A stretch of DNA of 64,000 nt from an uncultured Rivularia sp. (GTDB lineage: Bacteria > Cyanobacteriota > Cyanobacteriia > Cyanobacteriales > Nostocaceae), in assembly GCA_963665115.1 (NCBI GenBank), contig OY762007.1, positions 1,216,001 through 1,280,000 on the forward strand, in the 5' to 3' direction. Shown in pieces: positions 22,640 through 43,832 of this stretch. The position numbers and the translations under genes were made by a program. Numbering within the stretch: the first letter of the stretch is position 1; each line of letters begins with the position of its first letter. The notes under the pieces were generated by a model. That model saw only the letters and a list, made by a program, of their open reading frames with translations, made no database searches and was not told where the DNA came from.

Positions 22640-23001
22640 AAGCTCGATAGTGCTATGAAGGTTAGTTACTAAAAGATGTGAAAAAAGTTAAATTGCCGTT
22701 TGCGGCTCTAGAATACCTGAAAACTGGCTTATTTCGCTCGACATTAACTGTTAGCTATGAGCTGCAACTACTAGTACCGCTGCGCGGAAGTAAAAAGTCA
22801 AAAGTAAGAAGTAAAAAGTATTATATGATAAGGCTTTCAAACTTTTTAAATGGGTGCTTTATTTACGCCGTACTGTACTAGGTAGGTTTTTTTGTTAAAG
22901 AACCCCCTCATCGCTATCGCTGCTGTAAAAGCATATGCGATGAGGTGGTAACGGCGAGCTAACAAAGATGCAGTTCTCAGAGCTCTTAAGTCGATAAAAG
23001 T

Positions 23002-23062
23002 ACAATAAAAAATAAAAATGAAGAACTAATGAAGTATCTTCTTATCTTTACAAAACTTAATA
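23002..23062 (-). promoter_or_regulatory. Putative far-red-inducible promoter of the psbA3 operon
   Basis: Minus strand: TTTTGTAAA-N12-CTTCA-TTAGTT-CTTCA-N11-TATTGT. Same spacing as upstream of chlF. Confidence 0.7.
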
Positions 23063-23398
23063 ACTGTCTGAAGCACAGATGCGAGAATTTATTTATATTG
23101 AATTTAGAATAAATACTTACTAAATATAAATAAAAGTAAAGAAAATTATTTTTTATTGAAGCTAAGTAACTTTTAGGTAAGAAACTCGTTAATAATTATG
23201 TTGAATAAAAGTGTTTTTGCGGATATTTTTATTTCTAATCTATATAAAGAAATTAGATTTAGATATGGATGTTCGTGCTTGTCAACTGTTAGCATTTATA
23301 TAGAGCAAAAATAATAATTTGTGTGAAAAAAATAGTTCAATTTTTTAGTTAATTAATGTGAAAAAAACTTAGTTTCCAAGTTTAAGAGGTGATTTTAA

Positions 23399-24685
23399 AT
23401 GAGGATTTTAGTAGTTGAGGATGACAAGTGTATTACCAAAGCTTTGGAAAATATTCTTAGCAATCAACACTATGTCGTGGATATTGCCGAGAATGGTTTG
23501 CTTGGCTGGGAGTTTGTGGAGGCTTTCACCTATGACTTAATTTTGTTAGATGTAATTTTACCCGAACTTGATGGCATTGAATTTTGCCAGAAGTTACGAG
23601 AACATAACTATCAAATGCCCGTTTTATTATTAACAGCCCAAAACTCTAGCAATGATAAAGTGTTGGGATTAGATGCTGGAGCGGATGATTATGTTGTTAA
23701 ACCTTTTGAAGTCACTGAATTGTTAGCTCGAATTCGAGTTTTACTGCGTCGGAAAAATACACCAATACAAGCAGTTTTGCAATGGGAGAACCTGCGGCTG
23801 AATCCTGGTAGCACGGAAGTGACTTATAACAGTGATTTACTAAACCTGACTCCCAAGGAGTATCGTTTACTTGAACTTTTTCTTCGTAATAGCAATATTG
23901 TTTTTAGTAGAAGTGAGATTTTAGATCATTTGTGGTCTATGGAAGAAGCACCCAAAGAAGATACAGTTACAGCCCATATTAAAGGTTTACGGCACAAGCT
24001 GACGAGAGCGGGGGCACCGAGCGATTTAATTGAAACTGTTTATGGTTTGGGTTATCGTCTTAAAGAAATTGATCGCGCTAAAGTAAAATCCTCTGAGGAA
24101 AAACCTCGCAAGAAACTAAATAATAAACAAAGTAACAAACAGCAGCAGGCGAAGGAAGCATTGATTAAAACGTGGGAAAAGCTAAAAGCACTAAATATTG
24201 AACGCATCACTATTTTAGAGCAAGCTGTTAGCGCATTGTTAAAGAATAATAAAAGCGAAGAATTAATAGAAAAGGCGCAAAATGTAGCGCACCAATTTGC
24301 TGGAGGGTTAGGCATCTTTGGTTTTACTGAAGGTTCGCATCTAGCCAGAGAAATAGAGCAAATTTTTAAATCGAGAGTTAATTTAGACAGAACTCAAGGA
24401 CTTCATTTGAGAGAATTGGTAAAACTTTTACAGCGGGAAATACAACAGCCTGCGTTTAACAGCGATTGCAAACCCGTACAATGCGATAAATATTCTGTAA
24501 TGCTGGTAATTAATGATGATGTAAAACTAGCGAGGAACATAGTTAAATCTGCTATTGCATCGGGAATACATATAGAATCAGTACAAAATTTATTCGCAGC
24601 AAAAGAAGCATTAAACAAGCCTCAAGTTGATGCAGTATTGGTCAATCCTTCCCTTGATAAGACAACTGAAGAGGTTAAAGGTTAA
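23399..24685 (+). CDS. rfpB: FaRLiP DNA-binding response regulator (REC-winged helix-Hpt-partial REC)
   Basis: MRILVVEDD, LTPKEYRLLELF, IETVYGLGYRL, Hpt-like AHQFAGGLGIFG. First gene of rfpBAC. The C-terminal REC stops in a tandem repeat. Confidence 0.85.
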   Translation: MRILVVEDDKCITKALENILSNQHYVVDIAENGLLGWEFVEAFTYDLILLDVILPELDGIEFCQKLREHNYQMPVLLLTAQNSSNDKVLGLDAGADDYVVKPFEVTELLARIRVLLRRKNTPIQAVLQWENLRLNPGSTEVTYNSDLLNLTPKEYRLLELFLRNSNIVFSRSEILDHLWSMEEAPKEDTVTAHIKGLRHKLTRAGAPSDLIETVYGLGYRLKEIDRAKVKSSEEKPRKKLNNKQSNKQQQAKEALIKTWEKLKALNIERITILEQAVSALLKNNKSEELIEKAQNVAHQFAGGLGIFGFTEGSHLAREIEQIFKSRVNLDRTQGLHLRELVKLLQREIQQPAFNSDCKPVQCDKYSVMLVINDDVKLARNIVKSAIASGIHIESVQNLFAAKEALNKPQVDAVLVNPSLDKTTEEVKG

Positions 24686-24739
24686 AGGTCAAAGGTTAAA
24701 GGTCAAAGGTTAAAGGTCAAAGGTTAAAGGTCAAAGGTT
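24670..24739. repeat. Alternating heptamer tandem repeat (AAAGGTT/AAAGGTC) x ~10
   Basis: Seen directly; it supplies the rfpB stop codon. Confidence 0.9.
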
Positions 24740-24796
24740 AATAAGGCTTGTTTTTAATCTAAAACAAAAATATCCGTTGTTAAAACCCAAAATAGA

Positions 24797-27362
24797 ATGA
24801 CTCAGTTTAATAACCCACATCCGCAAATATCAAATAATTCCTCTATCAATGATGAAAAGCCAATTGCTTCTGTGGAGGTACTTTTACACCGGATGATGAA
24901 TCGGATTCGGCAATCCCTGGAATTACCTGCAATTCTCACCGGAAACTGTGGCAGAAGTCCGTACTTTCTTGGAGACAGACAGAGTTAAGGTTTATCGTTT
25001 TGATGCAGATGGCAGTGGAGAAGTGGTTGCTGAATCTGTTGTCAAAGAGCGCTTACCATCTCTTTTAGGACAACATTTTCCCGCAGAAGATATTCCACCC
25101 GAAGCACGCGAATTATTTATCAAAGCACGTCAGCGTTCAATTGTGAATTTAGCTACACAACAAATTGGCGTGAGTCCTTTGGATTGTCCGGAAACTGGAG
25201 AGTCTTTAGCACAAGATGATATTCGGTTTCGTCCTGTAGATGAATGTCATATCGAATATCTCACCTCAATGGGGGTACAGTCGTCATTAGTGGTGCCGAT
25301 TTTACATCACGACCAACTATGGGGATTATTGGTATCTCATCACAGTTTGCCACGTCAGGTAACAGAGCGAGAATTGCAGATTGTTCAGCTAGTTGCAGAC
25401 CAATTATCAATTGCGATCGCACAAAGTACTTTACTCGAACAAACCCGTGCCCGAGCAGCACAGGAAACTACAATTAATCGAGTCGCCAAGCTGTTGCATT
25501 CGATGACGGAGATGCAGTTACAGCAAGCATTGGAATTAACTGTATCTGGATTGCAAGGGGCGGGTGGTAGAGTTTACATTTTTCCGCAAAATCTCCAAGA
25601 GGAAGCACAATTGTTTGTTTCTGGAGAGTGGGTTAATAAAGATGAAGAAAAATTTGAGGAACATCCGACTTGGCAAGAGTGGTTGGGAAAGCAAGCAACT
25701 GTTGGGAATGGAATTAAAGCTTGGATAATTCCAGATTTGCATCAAGTTGCGCTGCCAGAATATTTAGAATCGGTTTTTTCAAACAGTAATATTCGCAGCT
25801 TGCTAGTTATCGAACTAAAATCTCGTCAGCAGAGCTTAGGTTATTTGAGTATATTTCGTCATGAAATTGAAATTGAAACTTTGTGGGCAAGAAGAGCCGA
25901 TCGCAATGATTCGCGACAACAGCGTCCAATAATATCTTTTGAAACATGGCGAGAATTAAAGCAAGGTCAAGTACAATCATGGATTGAGGCAGAAATTGAA
26001 CTTGCTTTGGCTTTAGGAAGTCACTTTGCCACAGCAATTCATCAATATGAACTGTATCAGCAAGTATACGCTCTCAATATTGACTTAGAACAAGATATCG
26101 AAGAGCGTAAGCAAGCAGAATTCAAAATATCTGCCTTAAATGCCCAATTAGAACAGCGAGTGCAGGAACGAACAGTAGAATTACGACGAGAAATTAACGA
26201 ACGCGAGCAAGCAAAAGCCTCACTCGAACGCCTTAGTCGGCAAAGCGGGTTAATCTTGAACTCCGCAGGAGAGGGAATTTGTGGTTTAAATGCTCAAGGT
26301 AAACTCACTTTTATCAACCCAGCAGCAGCGAGAATGTTGGGATATCGAGTAGAAGAATTGATTGTTTCAATCGCTAATAAGGATTCAGATTCGTACCCAA
26401 AATACATTCTCTCTGAATTTCCGCATCAGTCTGGAGAAAGATTTATGCACGTTATATTAAACCACTCCCAACCAGACGGAAGTCCTTACCCTTGGGAAGA
26501 AAATCCTATTTATGCCACCTTAAAAACTGGAGCAGTGCAACATATTACTGACGATATATTTTACCGTCGAAATAAAACAAAATTTCCTGTAGAGTATGTT
26601 AGTACACCAATTTTAGAAAAGAGTAAGATTGTAGGTGCTGTTGTCATTTTCAAGGATATTACCGAACGACAAATAATAGAGCGAATGAAAAATGAGTTTG
26701 TCTCAGTTGTCAGTCACGAACTGCGGACACCTTTAACTTCAATTCGCAGTGCTTTAGGTTTACTTTCAAAGGGTTCGTTGAATAATCAACCCGCTAAAAG
26801 TCAGCGGATGATGGAAATTGCCTTTGATAATACCAACCGCTTGGTGCGTTTAATTAATGACATTCTTGATATTGAACGCATCAATTCCGGCAAAGTGACG
26901 ATGGAAAAACAACATTGCAATGCTGGACAATTGACGATCCAAGCAGTAGATGAAATGCGAGCAATGGCTGAGAAAGCAGAAATTAAACTTGCTTTGAAAC
27001 CTGTTGAAATCCAATTATGGGCAGATCCAGATAGAATCGTTCAAACATTAACCAATTTACTCAGTAATGCAATTAAATTTTCGCCAGCAAATAGTACAGT
27101 TTCCCTTAGTGGAAAGCTGCAAGATTCTCAAATATTATTTCAAGTAAAAGATCGAGGTAGAGGAATTCCTGAAGATAAACTAGAAACCATTTTTGACCGC
27201 TTTCAACAAGTTGATGCTTCTAATTCTCGAAATCAAGGAGGTACGGGTTTAGGGTTAGCAATTTGTCGCAGCATTGTACAACAGCATGGTGGTAATATTT
27301 GGGTTGAAAGTACTTTGGATCGTGGTAGTACTTTTTACTTTACGTTACCTATTAGTAATTAG
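24797..27362 (+). CDS. rfpA: Knotless phytochrome histidine kinase (GAF-PHY-PAS-HK); apparent frameshift at ~24940
   Basis: FPAEDIPPEAR, RPVDECHIEYLTSMGV (bilin Cys), RPIISFETW, SHELRTPL, GGTGLGL. Removing one base joins 24797..24988 to 24948..27362. Confidence 0.92.
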
Positions 27363-27386
27363 CGATTATTTATTAGAAAAAAACAA

Positions 27387-27759
27387 ATGAGCAAACGCAT
27401 TTTAATAATTGATGACGATAAAGATATCCGAGAAGCCACTCAAATGTGTCTAGAAATTTTAGGCTCATGGGAAGTATTGAGTGCTGGTTTCAGGTAAAGA
27501 AGGTTTAGTTACAGCAGCAGCCGAGGTACCCGATGCTATTCTTTTAGATGTAATGATGCCTGAGATGGACGGTTTGACAACTTTTGAGAAGCTACAAGAG
27601 AATCCTGTTACTAAAAATATTCCTGTGATTTTACTAACAGCAAAAGCTCAACCTGCCGAAAAGCGTCATTTTACTCAACTTCGTGTAGCGGGGGTAATTA
27701 CTAAGCCTTACGATCCGTTTACTTTGGCTGATGAAATTACACAGGTTTTGAAGCGATAG
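27387..27759 (+). CDS. rfpC: CheY-like single-domain response regulator; apparent frameshift at ~27489
   Basis: MSKRILIIDDDKDIREATQMCLE...WEVLSAG then SGKEG...DAILLDVMMP...LLTA...KPYD after removing one T. Confidence 0.88.
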
Positions 27760-27857
27760 TTTTAGCCCGTTAATACTTGTTGTATCGTTTATGTAGAGTA
27801 AGCGATCGCGGTAATAGGAACTAAATGGTACTAATAGCCCGAAAGCATTCGTGACAA

Positions 27858-28901
27858 TTACAAGACAAACTCTTCCGTAACCACAGCATCTTGATAAATG
27901 GCTTCCACTTTAAACTGTTTACCAGCAGCTTCGCTAAATGCTAACTGAATAATTTGGTCGGATTCTCTAGCAATCGCCGATTCACTTTCTGGTTCATCAG
28001 TATTATAATTCAGCGTTACTTTCAGTTGCAAACCTTGTGGTAAACAATATTCATTTTGAGAACGAATTTGTGCAAGTACACCTATCTCTTGATTTTCTTC
28101 AAGTCTCATATTAATTGTTAATGCAAAGCGCTGATTATTTAGTAATAATCCAAAGTCAAATAATTTACCCCTTCTAACTGCAAAATCAGATGACTGAGTA
28201 TTTCTTCTGGTTGCACTTGCATAACTAAGATTAGGCATTTGTGGTGTTAAAATATTTTCAATAGATTGCCAACTTTCTTCAAATAATCCACTCCACCATT
28301 GAGAAAGATTAACAAGGGATTGAGTAACTTTGTGAGGAATATTTTCTGCTGATTTAGGTAAAGGAATAGCTTCTATTTCCAGAAAGCGAATATATAAGAA
28401 TAAATTGTTCACTTCACTATCAAAGCTAGAAAGCGGAATTTTACAAATCTCAGAGTTTTGACTTGGAGATAATTCATCATGTCGTATTATTCCATGAATT
28501 GTTAACTGTTCGGCTTCTTCTAAAATTTCAACTAATACATAGAAGTGAGCAGCAAGTTGTGGTGATATGATATTTTCTTGATGAATAGAAACTAAATTGT
28601 CATAAAGACTATCTACAGTAATTAGTTGAACCTTAAATTCACCAACTTGTAAATTAACGTTCTTCTGTTGAGAATCTGCATCGAGTTGCTTAACTTCGAT
28701 ATCTGGGATTTGTTCTTGTAACCATTCTTCAAAACCGAATAAAGCTAGTTGATTTAAATAAACTCTCCATTGATTTTTCTCACCATCAATATTTTGACTA
28801 ATATTGATAGCTTTCTCATAATGTTCTGGTTCTAAACAAGCAATCCTTGGTTTAATTCGTTGGCTAAAATCTTGTTCTGCTTGTAAGGATAATCTAGTCA
28901 T
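27858..28901 (-). CDS. DUF1822-family protein
   Basis: WRVYLNQLALFGFEEWL, AAHFYVLVEILEE, VNLSQWWSGLFEESWQ, LPQGLQL, EEFVL. Confidence 0.8.
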   Translation of the reverse strand: MTRLSLQAEQDFSQRIKPRIACLEPEHYEKAINISQNIDGEKNQWRVYLNQLALFGFEEWLQEQIPDIEVKQLDADSQQKNVNLQVGEFKVQLITVDSLYDNLVSIHQENIISPQLAAHFYVLVEILEEAEQLTIHGIIRHDELSPSQNSEICKIPLSSFDSEVNNLFLYIRFLEIEAIPLPKSAENIPHKVTQSLVNLSQWWSGLFEESWQSIENILTPQMPNLSYASATRRNTQSSDFAVRRGKLFDFGLLLNNQRFALTINMRLEENQEIGVLAQIRSQNEYCLPQGLQLKVTLNYNTDEPESESAIARESDQIIQLAFSEAAGKQFKVEAIYQDAVVTEEFVL

Positions 28902-28924
28902 GGTGTTTTTATATATGATTATTT

Positions 28925-30496
28925 TTATGCTGCGTTTCTTTTCTGATTGATATACTCTCGCAATCTTTGAGCAAATAAGCTATTTTTATAAAGGCTCCTT
29001 GATGCTGTAATTTCTGCATAAGCTTCTTTAAATGCTATTTCATACAAAAAATTTCTTACCTGTTGTGCTATATCTCGTAAATTATTCGGGTTGCAAGATA
29101 CTTCCTCCGTAAAAAATTTGCTAGCTTTTTCTTGAATTTGTTCTATGAAACTCTTCTCGGAAAAAGACTGAACATTTTCAATTAGTTCGCTCAATTGAAA
29201 TATACGTCTGGCTTTTGCCCAATTTGTTTTCCATAATTGTGCAATTTCTTTCAAACTCAAAGGATTATTTGTTTGGTAATAGAGTTGTAATCCTTGGATA
29301 AATTTTGGAGCATAGGCAGAATAATTCTTTTTTTTAGATAAAAATACCACTCGTTGAGGAATGATTGATGAAATTGCGTTAAATAATATTTTATTTGGTA
29401 ATTTATTCAAAAGTTCTCGTAATTCAATCTCTTCTATATATTCGCAGTTAAGATTTTTAATATAAGACGCATTCGGATTAAAATCAGAATTATTATTATC
29501 TTTATCTATAGAACCAGCTTTAGGACTTCCTATCCTGGTAGAATACTCATCTTGACGTAATATTTCTGCAATTTTTTGAAAACTTTGAATCAACTCATGA
29601 ACAGAACTAAGTATAATGTCTTTATCCTGTAATAAATCAAGCATTTCTTCTAACTGTGGGTGTGTTGGTTCGGAACACCTACCCCTTTGATGAAATTTTC
29701 GTCTATCTCTTCTATAAACTGCATGAAAAACTTTTATTAATTGATGTTCCTTATTAGTGAAATGAGTATCGAGCGATTGAGGGACTTCTCTACATAATAA
29801 AGACCAATCGCTAGAAATCCAAATTCCAAGCTCTAATAAAAATATTTGTAAGTTCTTATTTTGTCTAATACATCTGATACACCAATTATCTAAACTTTCA
29901 CTATTCTTGTTACTAGATAAATTTGGATTGTAAGTTCTTAAAATATCGACACTAAAAAAATTTCCTTCTCTAGGTATTGATTGAGTAGAACCATTTTTAT
30001 TAAAAATTAGTTGAGTTTTATCATCGCAGTCCATAACAATGAAGGTACTACCGTCATCGTTGAGAACGTATGATAACAAGTCTGGTAATAATGTATAATT
30101 ATTGGGACTTTTGTTCGCGAGTATTTGACAACCTTTAATAATAGCGTGAGATAAATAGCATCTTAAACAAAGCCCTGCCTCAGCACGTTTTTTACCATCA
30201 AGATTAACATCATGGAATATTTTCCACAGATGTACTTGAACATATTGATTTTCTGCCTTAGATAAATTTGTTTGACTACTTAATTGTGGTAATTCATCTC
30301 TAAAAAACTCTTTTGCTAAAGTTGATTGTTTCTCTCTATAACAAGAAGTCAGTTTACCATCTTTATCAAAAGGATTAGCGATAATGCACATTGTCCAATA
30401 TCTTGATGTATTTGTATCCATATTTTTGTTGTTCATCGGAATTAGTTCATAAGTTCTCATATTGAGATTTGCGATAAAAACGGGATTGGTAAACAA
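28925..30496 (-). CDS. Large sigma-70-like / HTH protein paired with DUF1822
   Basis: AGLCLRCYLS, SDWSLL, FHAVYRRDR, C-terminal HTH LSLKEIAQLW...ARRI. Paralog at 59703..61175. True start may be an internal ATG. Confidence 0.6.
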   Translation of the reverse strand: MFTNPVFIANLNMRTYELIPMNNKNMDTNTSRYWTMCIIANPFDKDGKLTSCYREKQSTLAKEFFRDELPQLSSQTNLSKAENQYVQVHLWKIFHDVNLDGKKRAEAGLCLRCYLSHAIIKGCQILANKSPNNYTLLPDLLSYVLNDDGSTFIVMDCDDKTQLIFNKNGSTQSIPREGNFFSVDILRTYNPNLSSNKNSESLDNWCIRCIRQNKNLQIFLLELGIWISSDWSLLCREVPQSLDTHFTNKEHQLIKVFHAVYRRDRRKFHQRGRCSEPTHPQLEEMLDLLQDKDIILSSVHELIQSFQKIAEILRQDEYSTRIGSPKAGSIDKDNNNSDFNPNASYIKNLNCEYIEEIELRELLNKLPNKILFNAISSIIPQRVVFLSKKKNYSAYAPKFIQGLQLYYQTNNPLSLKEIAQLWKTNWAKARRIFQLSELIENVQSFSEKSFIEQIQEKASKFFTEEVSCNPNNLRDIAQQVRNFLYEIAFKEAYAEITASRSLYKNSLFAQRLREYINQKRNAA

Positions 30497-30733
30497 AATC
30501 TGTCATGCTTTGTCCAGTCGAGCTTACATCTATATATAGATTGGGGATTTTTTACCTATACATTTTTCTTGGAATCTCCTTGTCATCTATCTAATGGTTG
30601 ATTATTTAACAAAAACTTTCACATAACATTAGGTAACATTTTTTACACAAAAAGTAATATTTTTATGGCACATCAAATAACATCATATAGTCAATAAGGA
30701 TACACAGGATATTACAACCATAAGGAACTGATA

Positions 30734-33700
30734 ATGCAGGTACTGGTGAATCTAAGGTTTCATGATGGTGATTTTCAGCATGGATTTGAGAAAACTACCC
30801 TTAGTGGGATTGTAACTGGTAGTCAAAATTCTACAGAACTAGAAACTCGACTACCCCCTGCACCTTTAATCCCTGGTTTGTATCAAAGTTGGCAGGAGAA
30901 ATACTGTGAGTTAGTGGAAACTCGCGTCAGAAAAATTGTACCCAAAGAACTGATAACCACAAGAGGTTTTAGTAAACAACAATCTACTAATTTCTCTTAT
31001 TACGAGTGTCAGCAGAATTGCAATCAATATGCTGAAGATTTGCGTACTCAAATTAATCAATGGCTGGCTGCAATTAAGTCACAATTAGAAACTGATTTTA
31101 AGTTAGATACAAATTCAGAAATTTTATTAACTATCAATACTGAAAATATTACATCCCAATTTACAAAGGATATTTTACATCGTTTACCTTGGCGGGAATG
31201 GGATTATTTTAATCGTTGTTCTGGTTTTGAAATCGCTTTGTGCTTGAGCAAATTTCAGTCAAATTCCACCAAAATTGTTGACGATGGGATATTTAGAAGA
31301 GTTAGGATTACTAGTATATTTGGTGATAGCACAGATATCGATATTGCTGGCGATCGCCAATTAATCGCAAAACTCCAAAAGCGGGGAGCAGAATTAATAA
31401 ATCTTGAGCAACCACAACGTCAAGATTTTATTAAATTATGGGATGAACCTTGCGATATTTTATTTTATAGCGGTCATAGTGAAAGTAGTATTGATGGTAC
31501 TCTTGGTTCGCTACAAATTAGTAGTACGGAAAGTTTAAGTTTACAGGAAATTAGAAATACTTTTCAAGAAGCTATTAGAAAAGGTTTAAAGTTAGCGATA
31601 TTTAATTCCTGCGATGGTTTGGGTTTAGCTAAGCAATTAGCAGATTTACATTTGCCTTATATTATAGTTTGGCGCGAACCCGTACCAGATAAAATAGCTC
31701 AAAAGTTTCTGGAGTATTTTCTCAGTTCTTATGCTGAAGGTAAATCTTTATTTAACTCGGTGCGAGATGCCAGAATTAAGCTGGTTGAATTAACAAATAG
31801 TGCTGAAAAAGAAAATCTTATTCCGGGATTGGAATGGTTGCCGATTATCTGTAAAAATACAACTGATGCTCCTCCGACTTGGGAAGATTTGGGAGGACTT
31901 ACGGGTAAACTTCCTGACTGCCCTTATCAGGGTTTATCCGCATTTAGGGAAGAAGATAAGGAATTCTTTTTTGGTCGGGATGATGTAATTGCAGACTTAG
32001 TAGAAGTTGTTAATAGTAAATCTTTTATTCCCGTTATTGGTGCTTCTGGTAGTGGGAAATCTTCTGTGGTATTCGCGGGATTGGTTCCGCAATTGAGGAA
32101 TGTTGGTAACGTACAGATTGTATCCTTTCGTCCGGGAAAGAATCCTTTTGATGCTTTGACTGTAGCATTAAGTCGAATTCAAAATGTTGAACTAAACAAT
32201 AACCGATTGCAAGAATTGGAATTAGAAATCAACTTGGAACATGATGAGAAAGCATTATGCGAGTTGATTGAACACTTGAATGACCTAACCCCCCAGCCCC
32301 CTTCCCTGCGAGGGAAGGGGGAGAAATTAAAGCCCCTCTCCTCACAGGAGAGAGGTTTGGAGAGAGGTTTCCCCCCAACGCTTCGTACTAATAGCCGACC
32401 AATTTGAAGAACTTTACACCTTAACTGAAGATTCCCTGCGTCAATCTTTCCTTGATTTATTACTTTATACAGTACAGAATACTCCCCTCTTTAGTTTGGT
32501 ATTGACGCTCAGGGCTGATTTTATGGGGAAAGTGCTGGATTATCAACCGATGGGTGAAGCTTTTCAAAAGTATCCCCCGGTGTTGCTGACTCCCATGAAA
32601 CCCGAAGAATTACAAGCAGCGATCGCACAACCAGCAGCGAAATTGAAGGTGGAGTTAGAGCAGGGGTTGACAAGTAAGTTAATTGATGATTTAGGCAATC
32701 AACCCGGACGTTTACCTTTATTAGAGTTTACCTTGTCGCTGCTGTGGGAGAAACACGATAAATGGTATCTTACACACAAGGCTTATGCAGAAATTGGTGG
32801 TTTAGAAAAGGCTTTAGCGAAATATGCGGATGGTGTTTTGAATCCGTTATCCGCTGTTGATAAAGAAAAAGCCGAACGCATATTTATTCAGCTAATTCGT
32901 CCGGGGGAAGGTACGGAAGATACTAAGCGTAAAGCTACCTGTGGAGAAGTTGGGGAAGATAATTGGGATTTGGTGGAGTTTTTAGCGAATAAGCGTTTGG
33001 TGGTGACTGGTTGGGATGAAAGCAGTCAACAGCAAACGGTAGAGATTGTTCACGAAGCTTTGATTCGGGAATGGGGAATGTTGCGGGAGTGGATACACAG
33101 CAATCGTAGGTTCCGGATTTGGCAGGAGCGATTACAATTTGAATTAGTGAAATGGGAAGACAAGAAGCGCGATCGCGATTATTTATTAAACGGTGGTGGT
33201 TTAGGTGAAGCGGAAGCTTGGTTAAATGATCGTAAATATCGGAAGTATTTGAGTGATTCGCAACGGGAGTTTATTCGGGAGAGTTTGGAGAAGCAGGATA
33301 AGGAAGAAAAGGAAAAAGTAAGGTTACAAAGACGTGCGATTAAATGGCTTTCTGGTGGTTTGGTTGCAGCTTCCTTGGCTACTGGGTTTGCTGGTTGGAA
33401 TTGGGTGAAAGCAGAGGTAAGCGCGACAACAAGCAAAATTAATAGTTTCAAAGTGAATTCAGAATATCTTTTTGGTTCGCAGCAGTATGAAAGTGCATTA
33501 ATAGAAGGTATAAAAGGGAATGAATTATTAGAAAATACCTGGTTGCAAAGATGGATACCAAATGATTCAAAAAGGGAAGTTAAATTAGCTCTGTATAATG
33601 CTATTCATAATTCTATATTAGAAAAAAGCACTATTACTACTGGAAAGAAACCCGTTATAAGCTTGGAATATAGTCCGAATGGTAATATTATTGCTTTCAC

Positions 33701-36700
33701 GTCAGAGAATACAATCAAATTATGGTCTGCTGAAAATGGTCAATTACTTCATACTTTATCTGGACATAAAGATAGGGTTTTAACTGTAAAATTTAGCCCA
33801 GATGGAAAAACTATTGCTACCGCATCATTTGATGGAACAGCTAAATTATGGTCTGCTGAAAATGGTCAATTACTTCATACTTTATCTGGACATAAAGATA
33901 AGGTTTTAAATGTAAAATTTAGCCCAGATGGAAAAACTATTGCTACCGCATCAGAGGATAATACAGTCAAAGTGTGGTCATTTGATGGTAAGTTAGTAGA
34001 TACTTTATCTGAACATAAAGATGGAGTTTTAAATGTAGAATTTAGCCCAGATGGTACAACTATTGCTACCGCATCATTTGATGGAACAGCTAAATTATGG
34101 TCTGCTGAAAATGGTCAATTACTTCATACTTTATCTGGACATAAAGATAAGGTTTTAAATATAGAATTTAGCCCAGATGGTACAACTATTGCTACCGCAT
34201 CAGAGGATAATACAGTCAAAGTGTGGTCAATTAATCGTAGATTACTCTACACTCTATCAGGGAATAACGTGAAGTTTAGCCCGGATAGTAAAATTATTGC
34301 TACTGCTTCAAGAGATGATGGAACAGCCAAATTATGGTCAATTAATGATGGTAAATTACTCCACACTTTATCTGGACGTAGCGTAGAATTTAATCCGGTT
34401 GGTAAAACTATTGCTACCAGATCATTTGATAATACAGTGAAATTGTGGTCATTTGATGGCAAGTTACTGCATACTTGGTCTGGATATAACGTCAAATTTA
34501 GCCCAAATGGTAAAACTATTGCTACTGCTTCACTAGATGATGGAACAGCCAAATTATGGTCAATTAATGATGGTAAATTACTCCACACTTTATCAGGAGA
34601 TAGGGTTAAATTCAGCCCAAATGGTAAAACTATTGCTACCGTATCATTTGATAATACAGTATTGTGGCTAAGAAAATTATCGTCAATAAAATTATGGTCA
34701 ATCGATGGTAGATTACTCCACACTTTACCAGGAAATAGCGTAGAATTTAGCCCCGATAGTAAAACTATTGCCACAATTTCAAGGGATAATAGAATTAATA
34801 AAACTACAGTGAAATTGTGGTCAATCGATGGTAAATTACTCCACACTTTACCAGGAAATAACCATACTTTACCAGGAAATAATGTTACATTTAGCCCCGA
34901 TAGTAAAACTATTGCCACAATTTCAAGCGATTATGGAATCAATAACCATACAGTGAAATTATGGTCAATCAATGGTAGATTACTTCACACCTTATCAGGA
35001 AATAATGTTAATTTTAGCCCTGATAGTAAAACTATTGCTTCTTCAAAAGATGGAAAAGTAGAATTTTGGTCAATTGATGGTCAATTTCTCTACACTTTAT
35101 CAGGATATAATGTTAAATTTAGCCCGGATAGTAAAACTATTGCTACCACATCATCTAGTAAAATAAATTTGTGGTCAATTGATGGTAAATTTCTCCATAC
35201 TCTATTAGGGAATTCATCAAGAAATGATGTTAAATTTAGCCCGGATAGTAAAACTATTGCTACCATTTCAAGGAATAACGATATATTCAGTAATACAGTG
35301 AAATTATGGTCTATTAATGGTAGATTTCTCTACAAGTTATCCGCAAATAGCGTGGAATTTAGCCCAGACAGTAAAACTATTGCTACTTCATCATTTAGTA
35401 AAATAAAATTGTGGTCAATCGATGGTAGATTACTCAACACTTTATCAGGAAATGGCGGAGAATTTAGCCCTGATAGTAAAACTATTGCTACAATTTCAAG
35501 CGATAATAGAATTAATAAAACTACAGTTAAATTGTGGTCAATTGATGGTAAATTCCTCCAAGATTTATCAGGGAATACCGTAGAATTTAGCCCGGATGGT
35601 AAAACTATTGCTTCCGTTTCAGACAATCATATAGTAAAATTATGGAATTGGAATTTTGATAATTTACTAAGTCAAGGTTGTAAGAAACTTGAAGGTTACT
35701 TAATTAACCGTCCAGATAAACTTAAAGAACTTAAAGTTTGTCAAAACCCAGAAATATTAATCGCAGCTGCTTCTACTTTAGTAAGACAAGGTGAGGATTT
35801 AGCTAAAAATGGTGATTCTGCAAGAGTTGTGGCGATGTTTCGTCAAGCTCAAGAATGGAATCCTAAATTAAATATTAACCCAGAGATAAAAGCAAAGGCA
35901 CGATATTTGGTTACTTTAGGTAGAGATTTGGCGAGAAATGGCGATTTTGAAGATGCAATAGAAAAGTTGGAAAAAGCAAAGCAGCTTGATGTTAATATTG
36001 ACCTTGATCCACAAACTGAAGAATTAGATAATAACCCCTCGTCAGTAGCAGGAGAGCTTACAGCCCGATATTTAGTTAGTCAAAGTAGATTTGCGAGAAA
36101 TGGCAATTTTGAAGATATGCTAAAAAAGTTAGAAAAAGCAAAGCAGCTTGATGCAAATATTGACCTTAATCCATTCACTAAAAAATTAGATAACAACCCT
36201 TCTTCAGTAGTAAGAGAGCTTAGAGCAGCATTTATGGTTCGCGAAGGATTAGATTTAATACAAAAAGGTGATTTTAAAGCTGCTATCGCAAAGTTAGAAA
36301 AAGCACAACAGCTTGATGCAAATATCGACTTTAATCCACAAACTAGAGAATTAGATAATAGTCCCCCTGAAGCATTAGTAAAAGAGTTTAAAGCAGCATC
36401 TATTGTTCGCGAAGGAGGAGCATTAATACAAAAGGATAATTTAAAAGGTGCTATAGAAAAGTTTAAAGAAGCACAACAATTTTATCCAGATATTGACCTC
36501 AATCCATTAACTAAAAAATTAGATAACAATCCGAAACTAGCAGCTAGAGAACTTACAGCAATATTTCTTGTCCGCAAAGGAGAACAATTAGTTAGAAAAG
36601 GTGATTTAGAAGGTGCTGTAGAAAAATTTAAAAAAGCACAGCAATTCGATGTAAATATTGATCTAAATCCACGAACTAAAGAATTGGATACTAATCCTGA

Positions 36701-36803
36701 TACAACAGTTCTAGAATTTTTTAAAAATGGACAAAGATTAACGCCACCAATCTCAAACGACTCGTTAATTCCACCACCGCCACCATTGCTACCATCTTTT
36801 TAA
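30734..36803 (+). CDS. CHAT - STAND (nSTAND1-type) NTPase - TM - WD40 - TPR-like protein; apparent frameshift at ~32373
   Basis: FYSGHS and FNSCDGLG (CHAT dyad); CPYQGLSAF; Walker A GASGSGKSS. Walker B VLIADQFEELY is restored by removing one C. LPLLEF, many WD40 repeats and five ~60-aa C-terminal repeats follow. Confidence 0.85.
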
Positions 36804-37201
36804 TAAGGGTTTGAACGCCAAAACCATAAAAAAGCTAAAGATGTTAGTAAAAAAGGTTTATTTTGCTTATACAGCATATGTTACAAGTTTTAGGCGATGA
36901 CTTTTAGCATAGTAAGTACTGAAGAGCCACTAATTTAGTTAATAGCGCTGTAATGCTTCTATATGGTGTTTAAAGCGTTTTCTCTATCGTGAAAGGATTT
37001 TAATTGATAAGCAACTATGATTTATCTCCAATAAGTCATTACCCACACCACAAGTTCATAAAATTGTATAGGTAAATTTATCCAAAACTATTAACTATCA
37101 GAAGCATTACAACTGGTGCTTTATTGATGGAATGAAGACTTAATTATTATGACTTTGTTCCCGTAGTTAAAGTAAAAAATATACTAAATTACTAGCAGTT
37201 T

Positions 37202-38341
37202 ATGAGTTCTTTTAAACAAGAAGATGAATATCAACTAGGAGGAAGTCTACCCGAAGAAGCTCCTAGTTACGTAGTAAGAAAAGCCGATTTTGACTTTTAT
37301 CAAGGTTTAAAAGAGCGAATGCTTTGCTACGTATTGAATTCCCGACAAATGGGAAAATCTAGTTTACAGGTGCGAACAATGTCAAAGCTTGAAAGAGAAG
37401 GTTTTGCTTGCGTTGCATTTGATATGACGGAGCTTTGCGTTAATCAAGTCACTGAAGATGAATTCTATAGTGGATTTGTTAGTCATTTAGCGAGCGAATT
37501 AAATTTAGATATTGATTTACAAAACTGGTGGTACGAACACAGCTTTATTCAACCATCTTTACGGTTAAGTAAATTTGTTGAAGAAGTGCTATTACAACTT
37601 CCACAAGATATTGTCATATTTATAGATGAAATTGATATCCTTCTAAATTTCAACTTTAAAAATGATTTTATGGCTTTTATTCGCTCTTGCTATCACAAAA
37701 GGATTGAAAAACGCTCCCTAAATCGTCTTACTTTCGCTCTATTGGGAACTGCAACTCTAGAAGAGTTATTTCAAGATAAAAATTATATAAATGATACATA
37801 TTTTCAGATCCAACATCGAGCGATAGAATTAACGGGTTTTCAGCTTCATGAAGTAGAGCCATTACAAAAATCATTAACTACAGTAGCCGATAATCCATCA
37901 CTGGTAATGCAAGAAATCCTTTTATGGACGGGAGGACAGGCGTTTTTAACTCAATGGGTTTGTCAGCTAATTTCTACTTCCGGGTTGCGGATATTTGAAG
38001 GGGAAGAAGCGAAAAGTGTTTCTTGGATTGTGCGATCGCGCATTATCGAAAATTGGTTATTACAGGATAATCAACAACATTTTTATACTATTAAAGACCG
38101 CATTATCAACAATAAAATACCTGCTTATAAATTATTGCAGCTGTATCAAAAAATTTTGCACTATGGAAATATTTCTGCTGATGATAGTCCTGAAGTTTTG
38201 CAATTATACTTGTCGGGTTTGGTGAAAGAGCATGATGGTAAGTTAGAAATTTATAACCGCATTTATAAATCGGTTTTTGATGATACTTGGGTAGCGAAAG
38301 AGCTACAGGTTTTATATCAGAGTGTAGAAAGTTTTTTTTGA
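37202..38341 (+). CDS. AAA-like (AAA_35) domain protein, stand-alone
   Basis: YQLGGSL...YVVRKAD, NSRQMGKSSL, IFIDEID, WTGGQAFLTQ, NRIYKSVFD. Confidence 0.8.
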   Translation: MSSFKQEDEYQLGGSLPEEAPSYVVRKADFDFYQGLKERMLCYVLNSRQMGKSSLQVRTMSKLEREGFACVAFDMTELCVNQVTEDEFYSGFVSHLASELNLDIDLQNWWYEHSFIQPSLRLSKFVEEVLLQLPQDIVIFIDEIDILLNFNFKNDFMAFIRSCYHKRIEKRSLNRLTFALLGTATLEELFQDKNYINDTYFQIQHRAIELTGFQLHEVEPLQKSLTTVADNPSLVMQEILLWTGGQAFLTQWVCQLISTSGLRIFEGEEAKSVSWIVRSRIIENWLLQDNQQHFYTIKDRIINNKIPAYKLLQLYQKILHYGNISADDSPEVLQLYLSGLVKEHDGKLEIYNRIYKSVFDDTWVAKELQVLYQSVESFF

Positions 38342-38476
38342 GAGAAATTTGATATTAACCGATTAAAGCTTCATCTACTCACAACATCCGAAATTATCAA
38401 AATTAAAAATAATAAAAATTAGTTTGTAGTAAGCGCTTACTACAAACTAATCAATTTTACGTTGGCTTATCTAATC

Positions 38477-39233
38477 TTAGTTATTCCAAGGAATCGCATT
38501 CGGTTGGTCGTTAATATTGACCCCAATAGCGAGGGGGGTTTAAATTACCTTCGACTTCTGCCCAAAAACTCCATCCTGCGTTTCTACCGTTGCCATCATG
38601 GAATTCTGCCATACGAAAGCCTCTTTTACCATAAGTTCTGAGTCCTACTCGGTTACACATTCTATCTGCAACTGCTTGAGACGTTAATTTCCTACCTTGA
38701 ACATTTGGAATTGTAAACACCGTACCACCAGACCAAGAATTTTTAGTTGCACCACCAGGTGTTATTTGAGATGGTGGTAGACCTGCTGGTGCTGGAGCGC
38801 CAGTCTTTCTGATACATAATAAAGAGCGATATGCATTTATACTAGTATCGCCAGTGTAAGGGTTGGTACTACCAGGCTTTCCATAATCTGCACCAAATAA
38901 AACGTAGGTTTTGGAGCCGAGAGTTAAAGGGCTTCCTTTGATTGTCCAAGTCATAGCCTTACCGTTGCCTGAAATAGGACGTGGAGGAATAGGAATAGGG
39001 CGTGGAGGAATGCCAGGGTAGGTCGGTCTTATTCTACGGCTATCAGTATTTTGAGCAAGTATAACTTTATTTGACATCAGTGCATCTGTCTTATTCAACC
39101 TAGATAAACTTTGAGAAGTTTGTGCTTTGCTTGGAGTCGCAGCAATAGTTGAATTAGCACCAATAAATGGTGTTAAAACGGTACCAAATGCAAATAATGC
39201 GATTAATTTTGATTTGATTGAAGATGCAAACAT
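38477..39233 (-). CDS. Secreted hypothetical protein; apparent frameshift at ~38522
   Basis: Signal peptide, Pro-rich linker, NPYTGDT, RMAEFHDG. Removing one base gives YWVNINDQPNAIPWNN stop. Confidence 0.7.
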
Positions 39234-39362
39234 ATTAATTGTCCTTGTTGTTAGGGTGTGAAATTGTACATAAATATCCAGCTAGATAAAAGTTAGGTCA
39301 TGTTATTTAACTCTTATCTAGCGTTAAGATGAAGGCTAGTTTTGACTCTTATTGAATTGTTT

Positions 39363-39950
39363 TTAAAAGAAAATTGTAAGAGTTTTAATTACACCTTGTC
39401 CTTGTGGAGAACTTATCCAATCCAAGACTCTGCCTCTGGGAGTATGTTCTTGAACTATCGCATAGCCGCCGATTCTACTAAGAATCTCTGGTGGAACTTT
39501 TGCTTGCCAGTTTACAGTACGATTACTTTTTCCAATCCATTTACCATCTACACCATATCGCTGTTGCTGGGTACTCCAGATAGCATTTCCAGATTTATCA
39601 GTAAATGCGATTAAAACTCCACCAGTAAAACCACTTGTTTTCCGACTAGTCCAGGTTTTAGTTCTAGCATTTAGGTTTCCATTTGAGTCTAAGTCGAATA
39701 AGGTTTCCATATATCCTCTTCTGACTACTTTATTTTTTCGCGTTCCTTGTATGGGGAAAGTTACGTTTTGTGCTTGTGCTATAGTTATGCTTTTTTCCGG
39801 AGTTGATGAAAGAATTGAAGCATGATTTACTTCAGACTTCGACAGAGCGTTAGCGGGCATAATAGTTGCTGCAAATGGCATAGCCGAACTTAACAAAACA
39901 GTAGCGATAGCTAAATTATTGGCGATTGTCTTTTTAAGATTAGTTGTCAT
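39363..39950 (-). CDS. Secreted hypothetical protein
   Basis: Signal peptide ending PANA, beta-rich domain, 195 aa. Confidence 0.7.
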   Translation of the reverse strand: MTTNLKKTIANNLAIATVLLSSAMPFAATIMPANALSKSEVNHASILSSTPEKSITIAQAQNVTFPIQGTRKNKVVRRGYMETLFDLDSNGNLNARTKTWTSRKTSGFTGGVLIAFTDKSGNAIWSTQQQRYGVDGKWIGKSNRTVNWQAKVPPEILSRIGGYAIVQEHTPRGRVLDWISSPQGQGVIKTLTIFF

Positions 39951-40259
39951 TTTATTTTCTTGTTTGTTTGACTTTAATTTGTGTTTTGATGAAAGCGTTT
40001 CGTTTGATTCGCTTTCCTCTTCATGTACCTATACTCACAGATTATTTATTAATAGTCAGCCGGAAAAAAACAGGTTATTGATTTGTATTTCAAAAAACAA
40101 TTTATGATGATAAAACCGGAAAAAATCGGCAACAAATAAAGTTCCGGAAAAAATCCGGTTTTTTCCAGTTATTTATCCAGATGTCTATGGTGGGTGCGAT
40201 AATAATGTTAATAATTTATTGTAAGAACAGGGAACATTCGTTCTTATATTTGTTGGGAG

Positions 40260-41616
40260 TTGCTAAGATCCATGAAATCCGAATCAGAATTAACCTGGAA
40301 GCAAACACAAAATCTAGTAGATGATTTAGTTTTCCAAGTCACCAAAAAACACCTTGGTGCTTCAGAAGTACAGGTACTGCATGGAGCCTGGTATGGGAAA
40401 ACTTATGAAACTATTGCATCCGAATCTTTTCTCGCGGTTAAGTATATTGGTGAAGTTGGTGGCAGATTATGGAGTAACCTTTCTGAAGCATTAGGAGAAG
40501 AAGTTAAAAAAACTAATTTTCGTCAAGCACTACAGCGACAATGGGAAAAACAAGCGGAGCATAACGGGAATACACCCAAAATCTCAGAAATACAACCATT
40601 AATAAACGAATTTACTGAAGAAACCATTAATTGAACGTCCGAACATTGAATCTTACTGTTATGAGCAAATATCCAAACCGGGTGTATTGCTGCGAATTCA
40701 TGCACCATTGCAGTTTGGAAAAACAGAACTAATGTCACGAGTAGTGAAACATAGCGTAAAACTTCAATACCGCACGGTAGTTTTAAATCTGCGAGATGCA
40801 GTAACTGAAGATTTTCAGAGTTTGGATAACTTTTTGCAGTGGTTGATTATTAGTATTAGCGAAATCTTAGAGATAGAGCAATCTGTGGAAGAACATTGGG
40901 CTAAAAGCTTGGGTAACTGTAAGATAAAAAGCCGAACTTACTTTGAAAAGTATATTTTACCTGGTGATAGTCCTATTACTATTACTTTAGATGAAGTAGA
41001 TAAATTATTTCCACATGAAGAAATAGCAGGAGATTTTTTAGGAACGCTACGAACTTGGCATGAATACGCAAAAACTAAACCTCTTTGGCAGCAATTACGA
41101 TTATTAATATTACATAGACAAGTTTATAATCAAATAAATATTAATCAATCACCCTTTAATACCGGAACCGAAATTAAATTAATAGATTTTACTAGCGAAC
41201 AAGTGGAATCTTTAGCAAAGAAATATAAATTAAACTGGGGAAACACTCAAGTTGAACAGCTAATGGCAATGGTGGGAGGACATCCATATTTAATAAAAAA
41301 AGCCATAGAGGTAATATCGCGCCAGGATATAACTTTAGAAAACTTATTGAAGTCTGCACCTACAGCTTCTGGGTTTTATCGGACTCATTTAGAAAGACAT
41401 TTACGTTACTTACAATCAAATACTGCACTCTTAGATATTTTTAAAGAAATTGTATTGTCAGATAGTCCCATTCAAATCAATACAGATATCTCATTAGATG
41501 ATGCAGTCAAATTATATGATTGTGGATTAGTAGAGCTTTCAAATAATAGTGTAGCGCCACGCTATCAAATTTATAGTTTATATTTTCAAGAAAGGTTAGC
41601 GAGTTGCCATTCTTGA
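40260..41616 (+). CDS. N-terminal HTH + AAA_35 protein; apparent frameshift at ~40622
   Basis: VLHGAWYGKTYETIA...LWSNLSEALGEEVKKTNFR HTH. Removing one A gives EPLIERPNIESYCYEQISKPGVLLRIHAPLQFGKT; also LDEVD and GGHPYL. Confidence 0.8.
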
Positions 41617-41967
41617 ATTAACGGAGCTTGCGATCGCCATTTTATAGAACTTCTGCTGGTATTTTTATCAAAAAAATGAAGAATTAAATCTTGTAAAATA
41701 GCGTATTGTTGGGTACAGCCACAACCGAATTCATGCGGTGCGAGACATTGCCATAACCCCTGTTATACTCCGCTCACGCAAGAAAGCGCCGAAGGAATTT
41801 CTTAATTTTTGCAAGTTTTTTTAGGTGGGCAAACCTCTACCGTAATTGCATACCTCATTAAATAGATATAGCAGCTGAGTTTCTAGAAGTTTAATAACGG
41901 GACTTAGTATCGGTTACGACCAAAACCTTCATAGTTCGCCTCGGTGAATCAATTGCAATTTTACTTT

Positions 41968-42000
41968 CTTCATGGGTTATTCACAATGTTTACCTACCCT
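41968..42000 (+). promoter_or_regulatory. Third copy of the putative far-red promoter, upstream of the RfpC-like gene
   Basis: CTTCA-TGGGTT-ATTCA-N11-TACCCT. Confidence 0.55.
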
Positions 42001-42064
42001 ACAAGAGAAAGCTGGCTTGCAAAACATAGCCAGCCCAAACTTGTTAGTAAGGTAAATGTAAATT

Positions 42065-42451
42065 GTGAACCACCGACGTATTTTACTTATTATTGAGAAT
42101 GAAGATGCTCTACAGGAAGTGACTCAGCTTTGCTTAGAGACAACAGCAGGTTGGGAAGTTGTAACAACAGGGTCGGTAAATGAAGCTATTGTCAAAGCTA
42201 CAACTAAACGGGTTGATGCAATTCTTCTCAATTTGAATGAAATTACATTTGATTTTGACTGGAATAGTATATTGCAATTGCACAATAACCCGACAACTCA
42301 GCAAATCCCGATAATTTTATTAACTTCTACAGAGCAGTATAAACAATTGCCTCAATTAAGTAAAGTTGGAGTAACCGCAGCGATTATCAAGCCTTTTGAT
42401 TTGTCAACTATTACTAGAGAAATCGCGGCTGTATTAGGCTGGGAATATTAA
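42065..42451 (+). CDS. RfpC-like pseudo-receiver protein
   Basis: CheY fold similar to rfpC (TQLCLE..GWEV, NPTTQQIPIILLT, KPFD) but ENE replaces DDD and DAILLN replaces DAILLD. Confidence 0.8.
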   Translation: MNHRRILLIIENEDALQEVTQLCLETTAGWEVVTTGSVNEAIVKATTKRVDAILLNLNEITFDFDWNSILQLHNNPTTQQIPIILLTSTEQYKQLPQLSKVGVTAAIIKPFDLSTITREIAAVLGWEY

Positions 42452-42452
42452 A

Positions 42453-42515
42453 ATTGTAAGCTTTTGTAAATATAACCTTCCTCTTCATAAGTTCTTCAGA
42501 ACTTTTTTTTATTCT
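42453..42515 (+). promoter_or_regulatory. Putative chlF far-red promoter with an upstream HLR1-like site
   Basis: TTTTGTAAA-N12-CTTCA-TAAGTT-CTTCA-N11-TATTCT. Reverse strand 42453-42470 reads TTTACAAA-AG-CTTACAAT. Confidence 0.7.
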
Positions 42516-42740: not shown

Positions 42741-43832
42741 ATGGTACAGTCTGAATTACAACGTACAATTACGACCTCAACCGATAGCGATTTGGTTGTT
42801 AAACCCACCTCTCAAAGTAATGTTGTAGAAAGAAGCGATTATTCCCAGGTATGGGAAAGATTCTGTCAATGGGTAACTAGTACCGATAATCGTCTTTATA
42901 TTGGCTGGTTTGGACTGGTGATGATACCTACTCTTTCCATAGCAGCTATCGTTTTTATAATTGCCTTTATTGCTGCTCCTCCCGTAGATATGGGTGGTTT
43001 GGGAGAACCAATTTCTGGTTCTTTACTTGATGGTAATAATATTATTACTGCTGCTGTTGTTCCCACTTCGGCGGCGATTGGACTGCACTTCTATCCGATT
43101 TGGGCAGCGGCTTCTTTTGATGAATGGCTGTGCAACGGAGGTCCATATCAGCTGATTGTGCTGCATTTTTTGATTGGTATTTATTGCTATCAAGATAGAG
43201 AATGGGAGTTAAGCTATCGTTTGGGGATGCGTCCTTGGATTAGTTTAGCTTTCTCTGCTCCAGTCAGTGCCACAGCCGCAGTACTATTAGTTTATCCAAT
43301 TGGACAAGGAGGTTTTTGTGAGGGAATGCCTTTAGGAATTTCGGGGACTTTCTATTTCATGCTGAAGCTACAAGCCGAACATAATTTTCTGATGAATCCA
43401 TTTCACATGATTGGAGTAGTTGGAGTTTTGGGAGGAGCATTCTTGAGCGCTATGCATGGTTCCTTGGTAACTTCGACTCTGATTCACAAATCCAGCAAAC
43501 ATGGTCATAAAAAACAAGCTTACGATTTTATGGCAGTTCACAATTATTTGGGAAGACTTGCGTGGTATCGCTTGAGTTTCACAAATAAGCGTAATTTGCA
43601 CTTGTTATTAGCAGTTGTGCCGGTGGTAGGGATTTGGTCTGCTGCCTTGGGTGTCGTCTCTATGGCATTCAACATTAATGGCTTGAATTTTAATCGGCAT
43701 ATACACGATAACCAAGAGTACGTAATTAATACCTGGGCAGACTCGATTAGCTGGGCCGACTTAGGAATAAAAGTAATGAACGAAGGCAAAATTCACTCTT
43801 TTCCCTTAGATTTATCATCTGGTAATTGGTAA
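42741..43832 (+). CDS. chlF: Chlorophyll f synthase (super-rogue D1, PsbA4)
   Basis: D1 homolog with the QD signature (YQDREWEL) and altered Mn-cluster region ([24 protein letters not shown]). DE loop is 9 aa shorter than in PsbA3. Confidence 0.93.

Follow-up and report, generated by a model that had tools for sequence, protein, structure and literature searches.

A probable RfpB-binding promoter box and a candidate RpaB element upstream of it in the far-red light photoacclimation cluster of a Rivularia sp.

A 64,000-nucleotide stretch of DNA from an uncultured Rivularia sp. (GenBank assembly GCA_963665115.1, contig OY762007.1, positions 1,216,001 to 1,280,000 of the forward strand) carries a far-red light photoacclimation (FaRLiP) cluster; the whole stretch is referred to here as the window, and positions are given within it. 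Three promoters of this cluster, those of psbA3, chlF and a lone receiver gene, were found to share a box made of a direct repeat with an 11-bp period and a -10-type hexamer placed 11 nt downstream. The box is real, and its reading as the site of the response regulator RfpB is probably right; both are already in print as a hypothesis. Two points appear to be new with respect to the accessible literature: the 5' half of the longer form of the motif resembles the HLR1 site (high light regulatory 1) of the regulator RpaB, and an Ala/Ser difference in RfpB covaries with the letters of the box. Both are suggested by comparison of sequences.

The repeat before chlF, CTTCA-TAAGTT-CTTCA, lies on the plus strand at 42483..42498, as a likely site for an RfpB dimer over the -35 region, and is followed after 11 nt by the hexamer TATTCT at 42510..42515, which predicts a start near 42522. 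On the minus strand before psbA3, the pattern was matched by CTTCA-TTAGTT-CTTCA at 23019..23034 and TATTGT at 23002..23007 (predicted start near 22995). Before the lone receiver gene, which is rfpD-like, it was matched on the plus strand by CTTCA-TGGGTT-ATTCA at 41968..41983 and TACCCT at 41995..42000 (predicted start near 42007); this site is of the 'short' type, without an HLR1-like element. The boxes lie 225, 362 and 64 nt upstream of chlF, psbA3 and rfpD, respectively. The original prediction had placed 33-bp sites at 23002-23034 (minus strand), 41968-42000 (plus) and 42483-42515 (plus), and its positions and letters were recovered exactly.

The pattern CTTCA-N6-(C/A)TTCA-N11-TANNNT occurred three times in the window versus a mean of 0.04 over 100 dinucleotide shuffles, none of which reached three, and six times in the whole genome, three of these being the window sites. 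With the T..GTT spacer that the three sites had been said to have in common, the genome held three matches, all in the window. The pattern had been fitted to these same sites, and independent tests were therefore added. A scoring matrix built from 93 sites, all of them in organisms other than this one but including close kin, gave the window sites 40.7, 38.3 and 31.7 bits, ranks 1-3 of the genome, with the next site at 24.0 bits. Nothing else in the window scored above 5 bits, so no box was found there before rfpBAC, apcD5 or psaA2.

Conservation was examined in two ways. A ChlF search gave 51 loci, of which the 39 with a near-full match or some upstream DNA were examined. The strict motif was present upstream of the match in 17 of them (one of the 17, L015, being psbA3), a one-mismatch variant was present in L016, and the strict motif was not found in the remaining 21, which were mostly ordinary psbA and included one locus with only 112 nt upstream. 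A ChlF search of 401 genomes was swamped by ordinary psbA and was uninformative. The repeat was also searched for, with no -10 hexamer required, in protein-selected loci, 50 from FaRLiP clusters and 82 others; boxes inside genes (four and two, respectively) were set aside. TANNNT followed at a gap of exactly 11 nt in 69 of the 81 distinct boxes of the FaRLiP loci, the next best gap accounting for 7 of the 81, versus none of the 15 boxes in the other loci.

Whether the box had been published was left open in the original prediction. Both the motif and the RfpB hypothesis are in fact found in a 2024 preprint by Antonaru et al. (bioRxiv 10.1101/2024.05.15.594131), which describes a 33-bp 'short' motif before psbA3, rfpD and psbO, together with 'long' (~59-bp) and 'chlF' (~61-bp) motifs that have an extra 5' region after a gap of ~12 bp. 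There the genes with motifs include chlF, psbA3, rfpD, psa and apc, no motif is reported before rfpABC, and RfpB is proposed as the binder. The window agrees with this class in its 33-bp core, in an 18-bp 5' element set off by 12 nt at chlF and psbA3 and absent at rfpD, and in the location of the boxes within 440 bp upstream of chlF, psbA3 and rfpD, with none before rfpABC. It differs in that the main text of the preprint calls the motif T-rich and leaves its role open, and section 9 does not resolve it into a direct repeat and a -10 element. 'RpaB' and 'HLR1' occur 0 times in that main text; its Figure 5, its supplements and any journal version may say more. The box itself, having been proposed from conservation in 2024, thus adds little. 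A 2023 paper (PMC10127269) had described the operator of RfpB as unknown, and a look-up of terms in PMC6416890, PMC6424891 and PMC4658448 found no motif or promoter analysis in the text available.

RfpB is encoded on the plus strand at 23399..24685 and has receiver, winged-helix and Hpt domains. The winged helix is of the OmpR type (Trans_reg_C) and matched structures of PhoB at E values of about 3e-13. PhoB binds a 22-bp double repeat that usually takes the place of the -35 region (PMC4971064), and its Thr194 and Val197 contact thymines (PMC3973317). Deletion of rfpB gave no derepression of the cluster, and RfpB was called an activator (Zhao et al., PMC4658448), which agrees with the role assumed for it in the original prediction. 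That the box is the RfpB operator, as also proposed there, is the best-supported reading; the winged helix, the activator role, the location at operon heads, an inducible fragment and the covariation of the recognition helix all point to it. We regard direct binding of RfpB to the repeat as very probable.

The residue of RfpB equivalent to Val197 of PhoB, in the recognition helix, was Ala, Ser or Val across genomes, and is Ala in the window. RfpB and boxes were both present in 37 genomes or loci; of these, 10 of the 11 with Ser had a CTCCA half-site, versus none of the 25 with Ala and not the single one with Val. Left out of the count from the start were two rows with an RfpB stretch identical to that of counted rows, L007 and L056 (which repeat L006 and L010), all loci lacking RfpB, and every genome with its best match outside the RfpB clade. 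Ser appeared at two separate places in the tree, each with starred support and each next to a sister with Ala: one is a clade of 10 rows, with G619 as its sister, and the other is L016, with L013 as its sister. The Ala-to-Ser change thus seems to track a change of the box from CTTCA to CTCCA; the association is suggestive, not significant, and would support direct read-out by RfpB. Such a rule would predict which promoter-regulator pairs function across strains and would offer a one-mutation handle on the read-out. Genomes G620 (L163) and G556 (L164) each had two divergently arranged rfpB-like genes, those of G556 having one Ala and one Val at the base-contact position, and the cluster-linked rfpB copy of G503 (L168) was of the Val type.

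Promoter fragments from a published study bear on the same question. Liu et al. (PMC10127269) tested ten upstream fragments in Chlorogloeopsis, of which only PchlF of JSC-1 was induced by far-red light (30-fold). As seen by eye in Table S1 of that paper, this fragment holds CTCCA-TCAGTT-CTTCA-N11-TACGCT, and L016 carries the same. In the boxes of the uninduced chlF, apcD5 and psbA3 fragments of Syn7335, the proximal half is CTCCA, and TANNNT is missing at psbA3; no box was seen by eye in the other six uninduced fragments. All Nostocales RfpB rows compared had Ala, and the RfpB of the Chlorogloeopsis reporter host presumably has Ala too.

The extra 5' element was compared with HLR1, whose consensus is (G/T)TTACA(T/A)(T/A)-N2-(G/T)TTACA(T/A)(T/A). 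Activating HLR1 sites are centred at -66 to -45, and repression by RpaB maps near the start (PMC6525291). The element before chlF, at 42453..42470 on the minus strand, has one mismatch to the RpaB consensus, is reversed relative to chlF, and spans -69..-52 if counted from the predicted start, with 39 nt between it and the -10 hexamer. That before psbA3, at 23047..23064 on the plus strand, has three mismatches and is likewise reversed relative to its gene, with the same offset as at chlF. Both 18-mers sit 12 nt upstream of the box, and no HLR1 match was found at the equivalent offset upstream of the rfpD box in this genome. The chance rate per intergenic position of this genome was 1.9e-5 for at most one mismatch and 8e-4 for at most three. 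If transcription starts 7 nt after the hexamer, as predicted, the centre of the element is at about -60, which would fall within the range of activating sites. The psbA3 element also lies in the divergent psbA3-rfpB gap (22640-23398), in forward orientation with respect to rfpB, which begins about 350 nt downstream, and it could also affect rfpBAC.

In 39 distinct chlF sites, the best fit to HLR1 over offsets -125 to -11 and both orientations was at this same offset and in this orientation, with 3.26 mean mismatches versus a background of 9.64 (standard deviation 0.86). Two or fewer mismatches were present in 13 of the sites, three or fewer in 26 and four or fewer in 34. No column-permuted motif out of 5000 fitted these sites as well; with permutations that preserve the repeat, 1 of 5000 did, at a value equal to that observed, so it was probably the unpermuted order. 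Of 20 psbA3 sites, 11 had at most three mismatches and nine had at least seven; with the two kinds of permutation, 3 and 5 of 5000 motifs fitted the psbA3 sites as well. There was no HLR1 signal at 42 other sites. The identity of the 5' element as an NtcA site (GTA-N8-TAC) was rejected, since no site has C at the last position and 37 of 39 have A there, and its identity as a second RfpB box was disfavoured by its period of 10 versus 11 and its different core.

White-light photosystem I (PSI) promoters of the same genome were also inspected. At psaA, a perfect HLR1 in forward orientation is separated from a TANNNT hexamer by 39 nt, as at chlF, and at psaF an HLR1 with two mismatches has a 45-nt gap; for psaD and psaE, no HLR1 within three mismatches was found in 600 nt. 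An RpaB ortholog is encoded in the genome (396 bits versus a family cut-off of 330), and the E. coli genome, used as a control, had no RpaB above that cut-off. The 82 intergenic HLR1 matches with at most one mismatch in this genome showed no clear regulon by eye. In titles and the openings of abstracts, we found no link of FaRLiP promoters to HLR1 or RpaB and no report of RfpB binding to DNA. On this evidence, binding of RpaB to the upstream element is somewhat likely, and an effect by co-activation rather than repression is nearly an even call that tilts slightly to the negative. RpaB is probably not strictly required for these promoters.

The explanation that we favour combines the two elements. 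CTTCA-N6-CTTCA with the -10 hexamer 11 nt downstream would be a conserved promoter element at the heads of FaRLiP operons, on which a dimer of activated RfpB would bind the repeat head-to-tail in place of a -35 box and recruit RNA polymerase much as PhoB does, with transcription predicted to start 7 nt after the hexamers. At chlF and psbA3, RpaB would bind the HLR1-like element 12 nt upstream and add tuning by low light or redox state. The positions, spacing, conservation, HLR1 match and covariation were observed here, and far-red induction of a chlF upstream fragment with both elements is reported in papers. Taken whole, this explanation is likely. Should RpaB indeed bind the upstream element, a known regulator would join the responses to light colour and light intensity in the control of FaRLiP. 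The 5' half of the motif, left without a role in the preprint, would then have a name, and this would help in designing far-red-inducible promoters and in moving chlorophyll f genes into other hosts. A broader version holds that the main FaRLiP promoters are two-input switches in all sampled lineages, with RfpB reporting colour and the essential RpaB reporting low light or redox, and that Ala/Ser sets the reading of CTCCA, which would explain the failure of Syn7335 promoters in Chlorogloeopsis. This we offer tentatively, doubt having the upper hand; if true, it would wire chlorophyll f synthesis into the general light-intensity network.

Several observations weigh against this explanation. The compared sites are kin and not independent, and sister boxes exist outside FaRLiP clusters, many of the examined matches preceding other genes. 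The HLR1-like element is absent at 9 of 20 psbA3 sites, none of 12 rfpD sites had five or fewer mismatches to it, its signal at apcD5 was weak (134/5000 and 380/5000 permutations), and its proximal half is degenerate outside Nostocales. The 39-nt geometry was found in just one of the four white-light PSI promoters tested here, and in the opposite orientation. An RfpABC sensor reportedly works over a more than 230-fold range (Sun et al. 2025, per the review PMC13107560) in E. coli, whose genome had no RpaB above the cut-off, which implies that activation can do without RpaB. Far-red induction was stronger at lower intensity, and with red light filtered out the output of PchlF saturated and did not fall (Liu et al., PMC10127269), so the inverse effect of intensity may reflect leakage of red light rather than RpaB. 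An AT-rich UP-type function of the upstream element is possible as well, short promoters working without an HLR1-like element. The covariation rests on two independent events, and G583, with Ser, had no C variant in its sole counted box, that of apcD5; a CTCCA/CTCCA box of G583, 7 kb from rfpB and before a non-FaRLiP gene, had been excluded from the count. The JSC-1 fragment, with CTCCA in its distal half, works all the same in a heterocystous host whose RfpB presumably has Ala.

Some of these points are shared by an explanation in which RfpB acts alone, the upstream element being an AT-rich UP-type element for the alpha subunit of the polymerase or a weak second RfpB site, and its likeness to HLR1 being due to chance. 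The region is rich in A and T and lies at the distance of an UP element, RfpABC reportedly works in E. coli (PMC13107560), and the 'short' promoters have no upstream element. Conserved G (32/39 sites) and C (25/39 sites) positions in the element argue the other way, as do its repeat period of 10, which is that of HLR1 rather than the 11 of the box, and the failure of permuted motifs of equal composition to fit. We consider it possible, if rather doubtful, that RfpB acts alone.

RpaB could instead sit on the upstream element as a brake that competes with or opposes RfpB and keeps the far-red genes off in dim visible light. HLR1 sites centred at -66 to -45 go with activation, repression being found near the start (PMC6525291), and deletion of rfpB gave no derepression, which makes an additional repressor needless (PMC4658448). 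This role is accordingly improbable, even though no more than 12 nt separate the two sites, the orientation of the element is the reverse of that of the psaA site of this genome, and FaRLiP transcripts were nearly undetectable in white light (PMC10127269).

Another regulator of the OmpR family, a paralog of RfpB or a factor downstream of it, might read the repeat, with RfpB acting indirectly. This genome has two RfpB paralogs whose winged-helix domains are 66-67% identical, and it has sister boxes of 15-24 bits elsewhere, mostly at 6.21-6.28 Mb and 7.44 Mb near the two paralogs. Sister boxes were noted at G000:C1:6277565-6277597, 6239015, 6223862, 6210373, 7443348 and 8424006, before a 72-aa open reading frame (ORF), a small heat-shock-like ORF and others. 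Similar boxes precede non-FaRLiP genes in other genomes: a relaxed pattern matched in 64 of 401 cyanobacterial genomes, with 86 matches versus 13 for the reversed control (manual count). The sister boxes are different, however, being mostly CCTCA/CTCCA with a CAAGTT-type spacer, and several have a paralog gene nearby, at 6.21 or 7.44 Mb, which fits each paralog reading its own variant with a small chance of cross-talk. The box variant, moreover, tracks the RfpB of the cluster itself, and RfpABC is reportedly sufficient in E. coli (PMC13107560). An indirect role of RfpB is thus very improbable. The regulator-site reading of the original prediction was supported for the FaRLiP boxes; neither the HLR1-like element upstream nor the sister boxes by the RfpB paralogs had been noticed there. 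A chance origin of the three matches in T-rich intergenic DNA can be dismissed, since the conservation at a fixed spacing across lineages and the independent description in the 2024 preprint refute it, even though the pattern had been derived from the sites themselves and G+C makes up about 35% of the intergenic DNA.

Two observations were made on layouts outside FaRLiP clusters. In L141-L144 (G056, G005, G062 and G119, of one genus), a 72-aa hydrophobic ORF is preceded by a perfect CTTCA-TAAGTT-CTTCA-N11-TANNNT and by an HLR1-like element (two mismatches in three loci, four in one) whose offset differs by one base from that in FaRLiP promoters, giving a two-part layout of box and HLR1-like element before a non-FaRLiP gene. 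In the Rivularia genome, a gene that by eye looks pyruvate-formate-lyase-like has its start near 6272800 and a perfect HLR1 upstream.

Compared with known systems, the box resembles the pho box of PhoB in its tandem repeats of 11-bp period in place of a -35 element and in a winged-helix reader that aligns to PhoB; RfpB differs in having Gly at the position of Arg201 and an Hpt domain. The core of the pho-box half-site is TGTCA, versus CTTCA here. The upstream element shares with the HLR1/RpaB regulon of Synechocystis PSI genes (Riediger et al. 2019, PMC6525291) the paired 8-nt repeats 2 nt apart and, counted from the predicted start, a centre at about -60; in the supplement of that paper, the predicted activating HLR1 of psaE is at -69..-52 on the minus strand, matching the predicted place and the strand of the element here, and that of psaL at -67..-50. 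It differs in that the box of a second regulator stands between the element and the -10 hexamer, and in that its proximal half is often degenerate. The G-box of CcaR and the L-box of RcaC in chromatic acclimation (PMC5737509) are comparable as promoter motifs bound by a response regulator that a photoreceptor drives and that switches on antenna genes, and they differ in their regulators and target genes.

The cluster lies within a genome of 8.69 Mb. Its minus-strand genes are psbA3, apc, psbD3, psbC2, psbB2 and psaF2; on the plus strand, rfpB, rfpA and rfpC are followed by ~14 kb of unrelated genes and then by the lone receiver gene, chlF, psaA2, psaB2, psaL2 and psaI2. Which paralog each gene is we take from similarity, gene order and customary nomenclature. 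psbA3 (21554..22639, minus) is the first gene of a predicted unit psbA3-apc-psbD3-psbC2-psbB2-...-psaF2 that extends to about 10140, and chlF, which encodes a divergent D1 (chlorophyll f synthase; 42741..43832, plus), is the first gene of a predicted unit chlF-psaA2-psaB2-psaL2-psaI2 that extends to about 49914. Two long co-transcribed units headed by these genes are plausible, and the presence of boxes only at operon heads within the window fits them. Generic sigma-70 scans (19 predicted promoters versus 30.4 in shuffled sequence, and 27 versus 20.0) and terminator scans (14 versus 12.1, and 9 versus 8.6) gave counts near shuffled levels, and so neither support nor oppose two long operons.

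rfpA, which encodes a GAF-PHY-PAS-histidine kinase, and rfpC occupy 24797..27759 on the plus strand, with apparent frameshifts at 24943 and 27488. RfpC proper is at about 27387-27759, and the gene at 42065..42451 (plus), which had been labelled RfpC-like, is instead a second lone CheY-like receiver. Its position and motif fit the optional rfpD of Antonaru et al., and it is probably rfpD. Its phosphoacceptor position has Asn versus Asp in the nine orthologs whose alignment covers it, so the protein of this strain may be a pseudo-receiver. Between rfpC and the rfpD box, window positions 27760-41960 hold the ~14 kb of DUF1822, CHAT/nSTAND1 and WD40 proteins and two AAA_35 proteins. In close relatives rfpC adjoins rfpD, without this insert; Antonaru et al. 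(bioRxiv 10.1101/2024.05.15.594131) note that insertions are concentrated on the downstream side of the rfp genes. In the region 23399-24740 of the window, RfpB has 428 aa and terminates at a 7-nt tandem repeat. It is without most of the second receiver domain present in the 622-aa RfpB of L004 and L052, as is the 423-aa RfpB of L011.

Single extra bases were found at 18067 (apcE2), 24943 (rfpA) and 27488 (rfpC). They were missing from short-read contigs in 3/4, 3/4 and 4/4 runs, respectively, of one study, and the three apparent frameshifts are therefore assembly errors. The possibility that the cluster is decaying was rejected on this ground and on that of the 423-aa RfpB also present in L011. 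A fourth apparent break lies in psaA2 near 45850-45874, and a split is likewise present in the white-light psaA/psaB region at 2.10 Mb, which hints at further indels in the assembly. An IS630-type transposase (two ORFs, 10545-11599; element 10467-11637) interrupts psaF2; the element was covered by contigs of three runs and was absent from the run of a related strain. A near-perfect HLR1-like 18-mer at 10494 lies inside the end of this element; another copy is found at genome position 8005168, next to a similar transposase.

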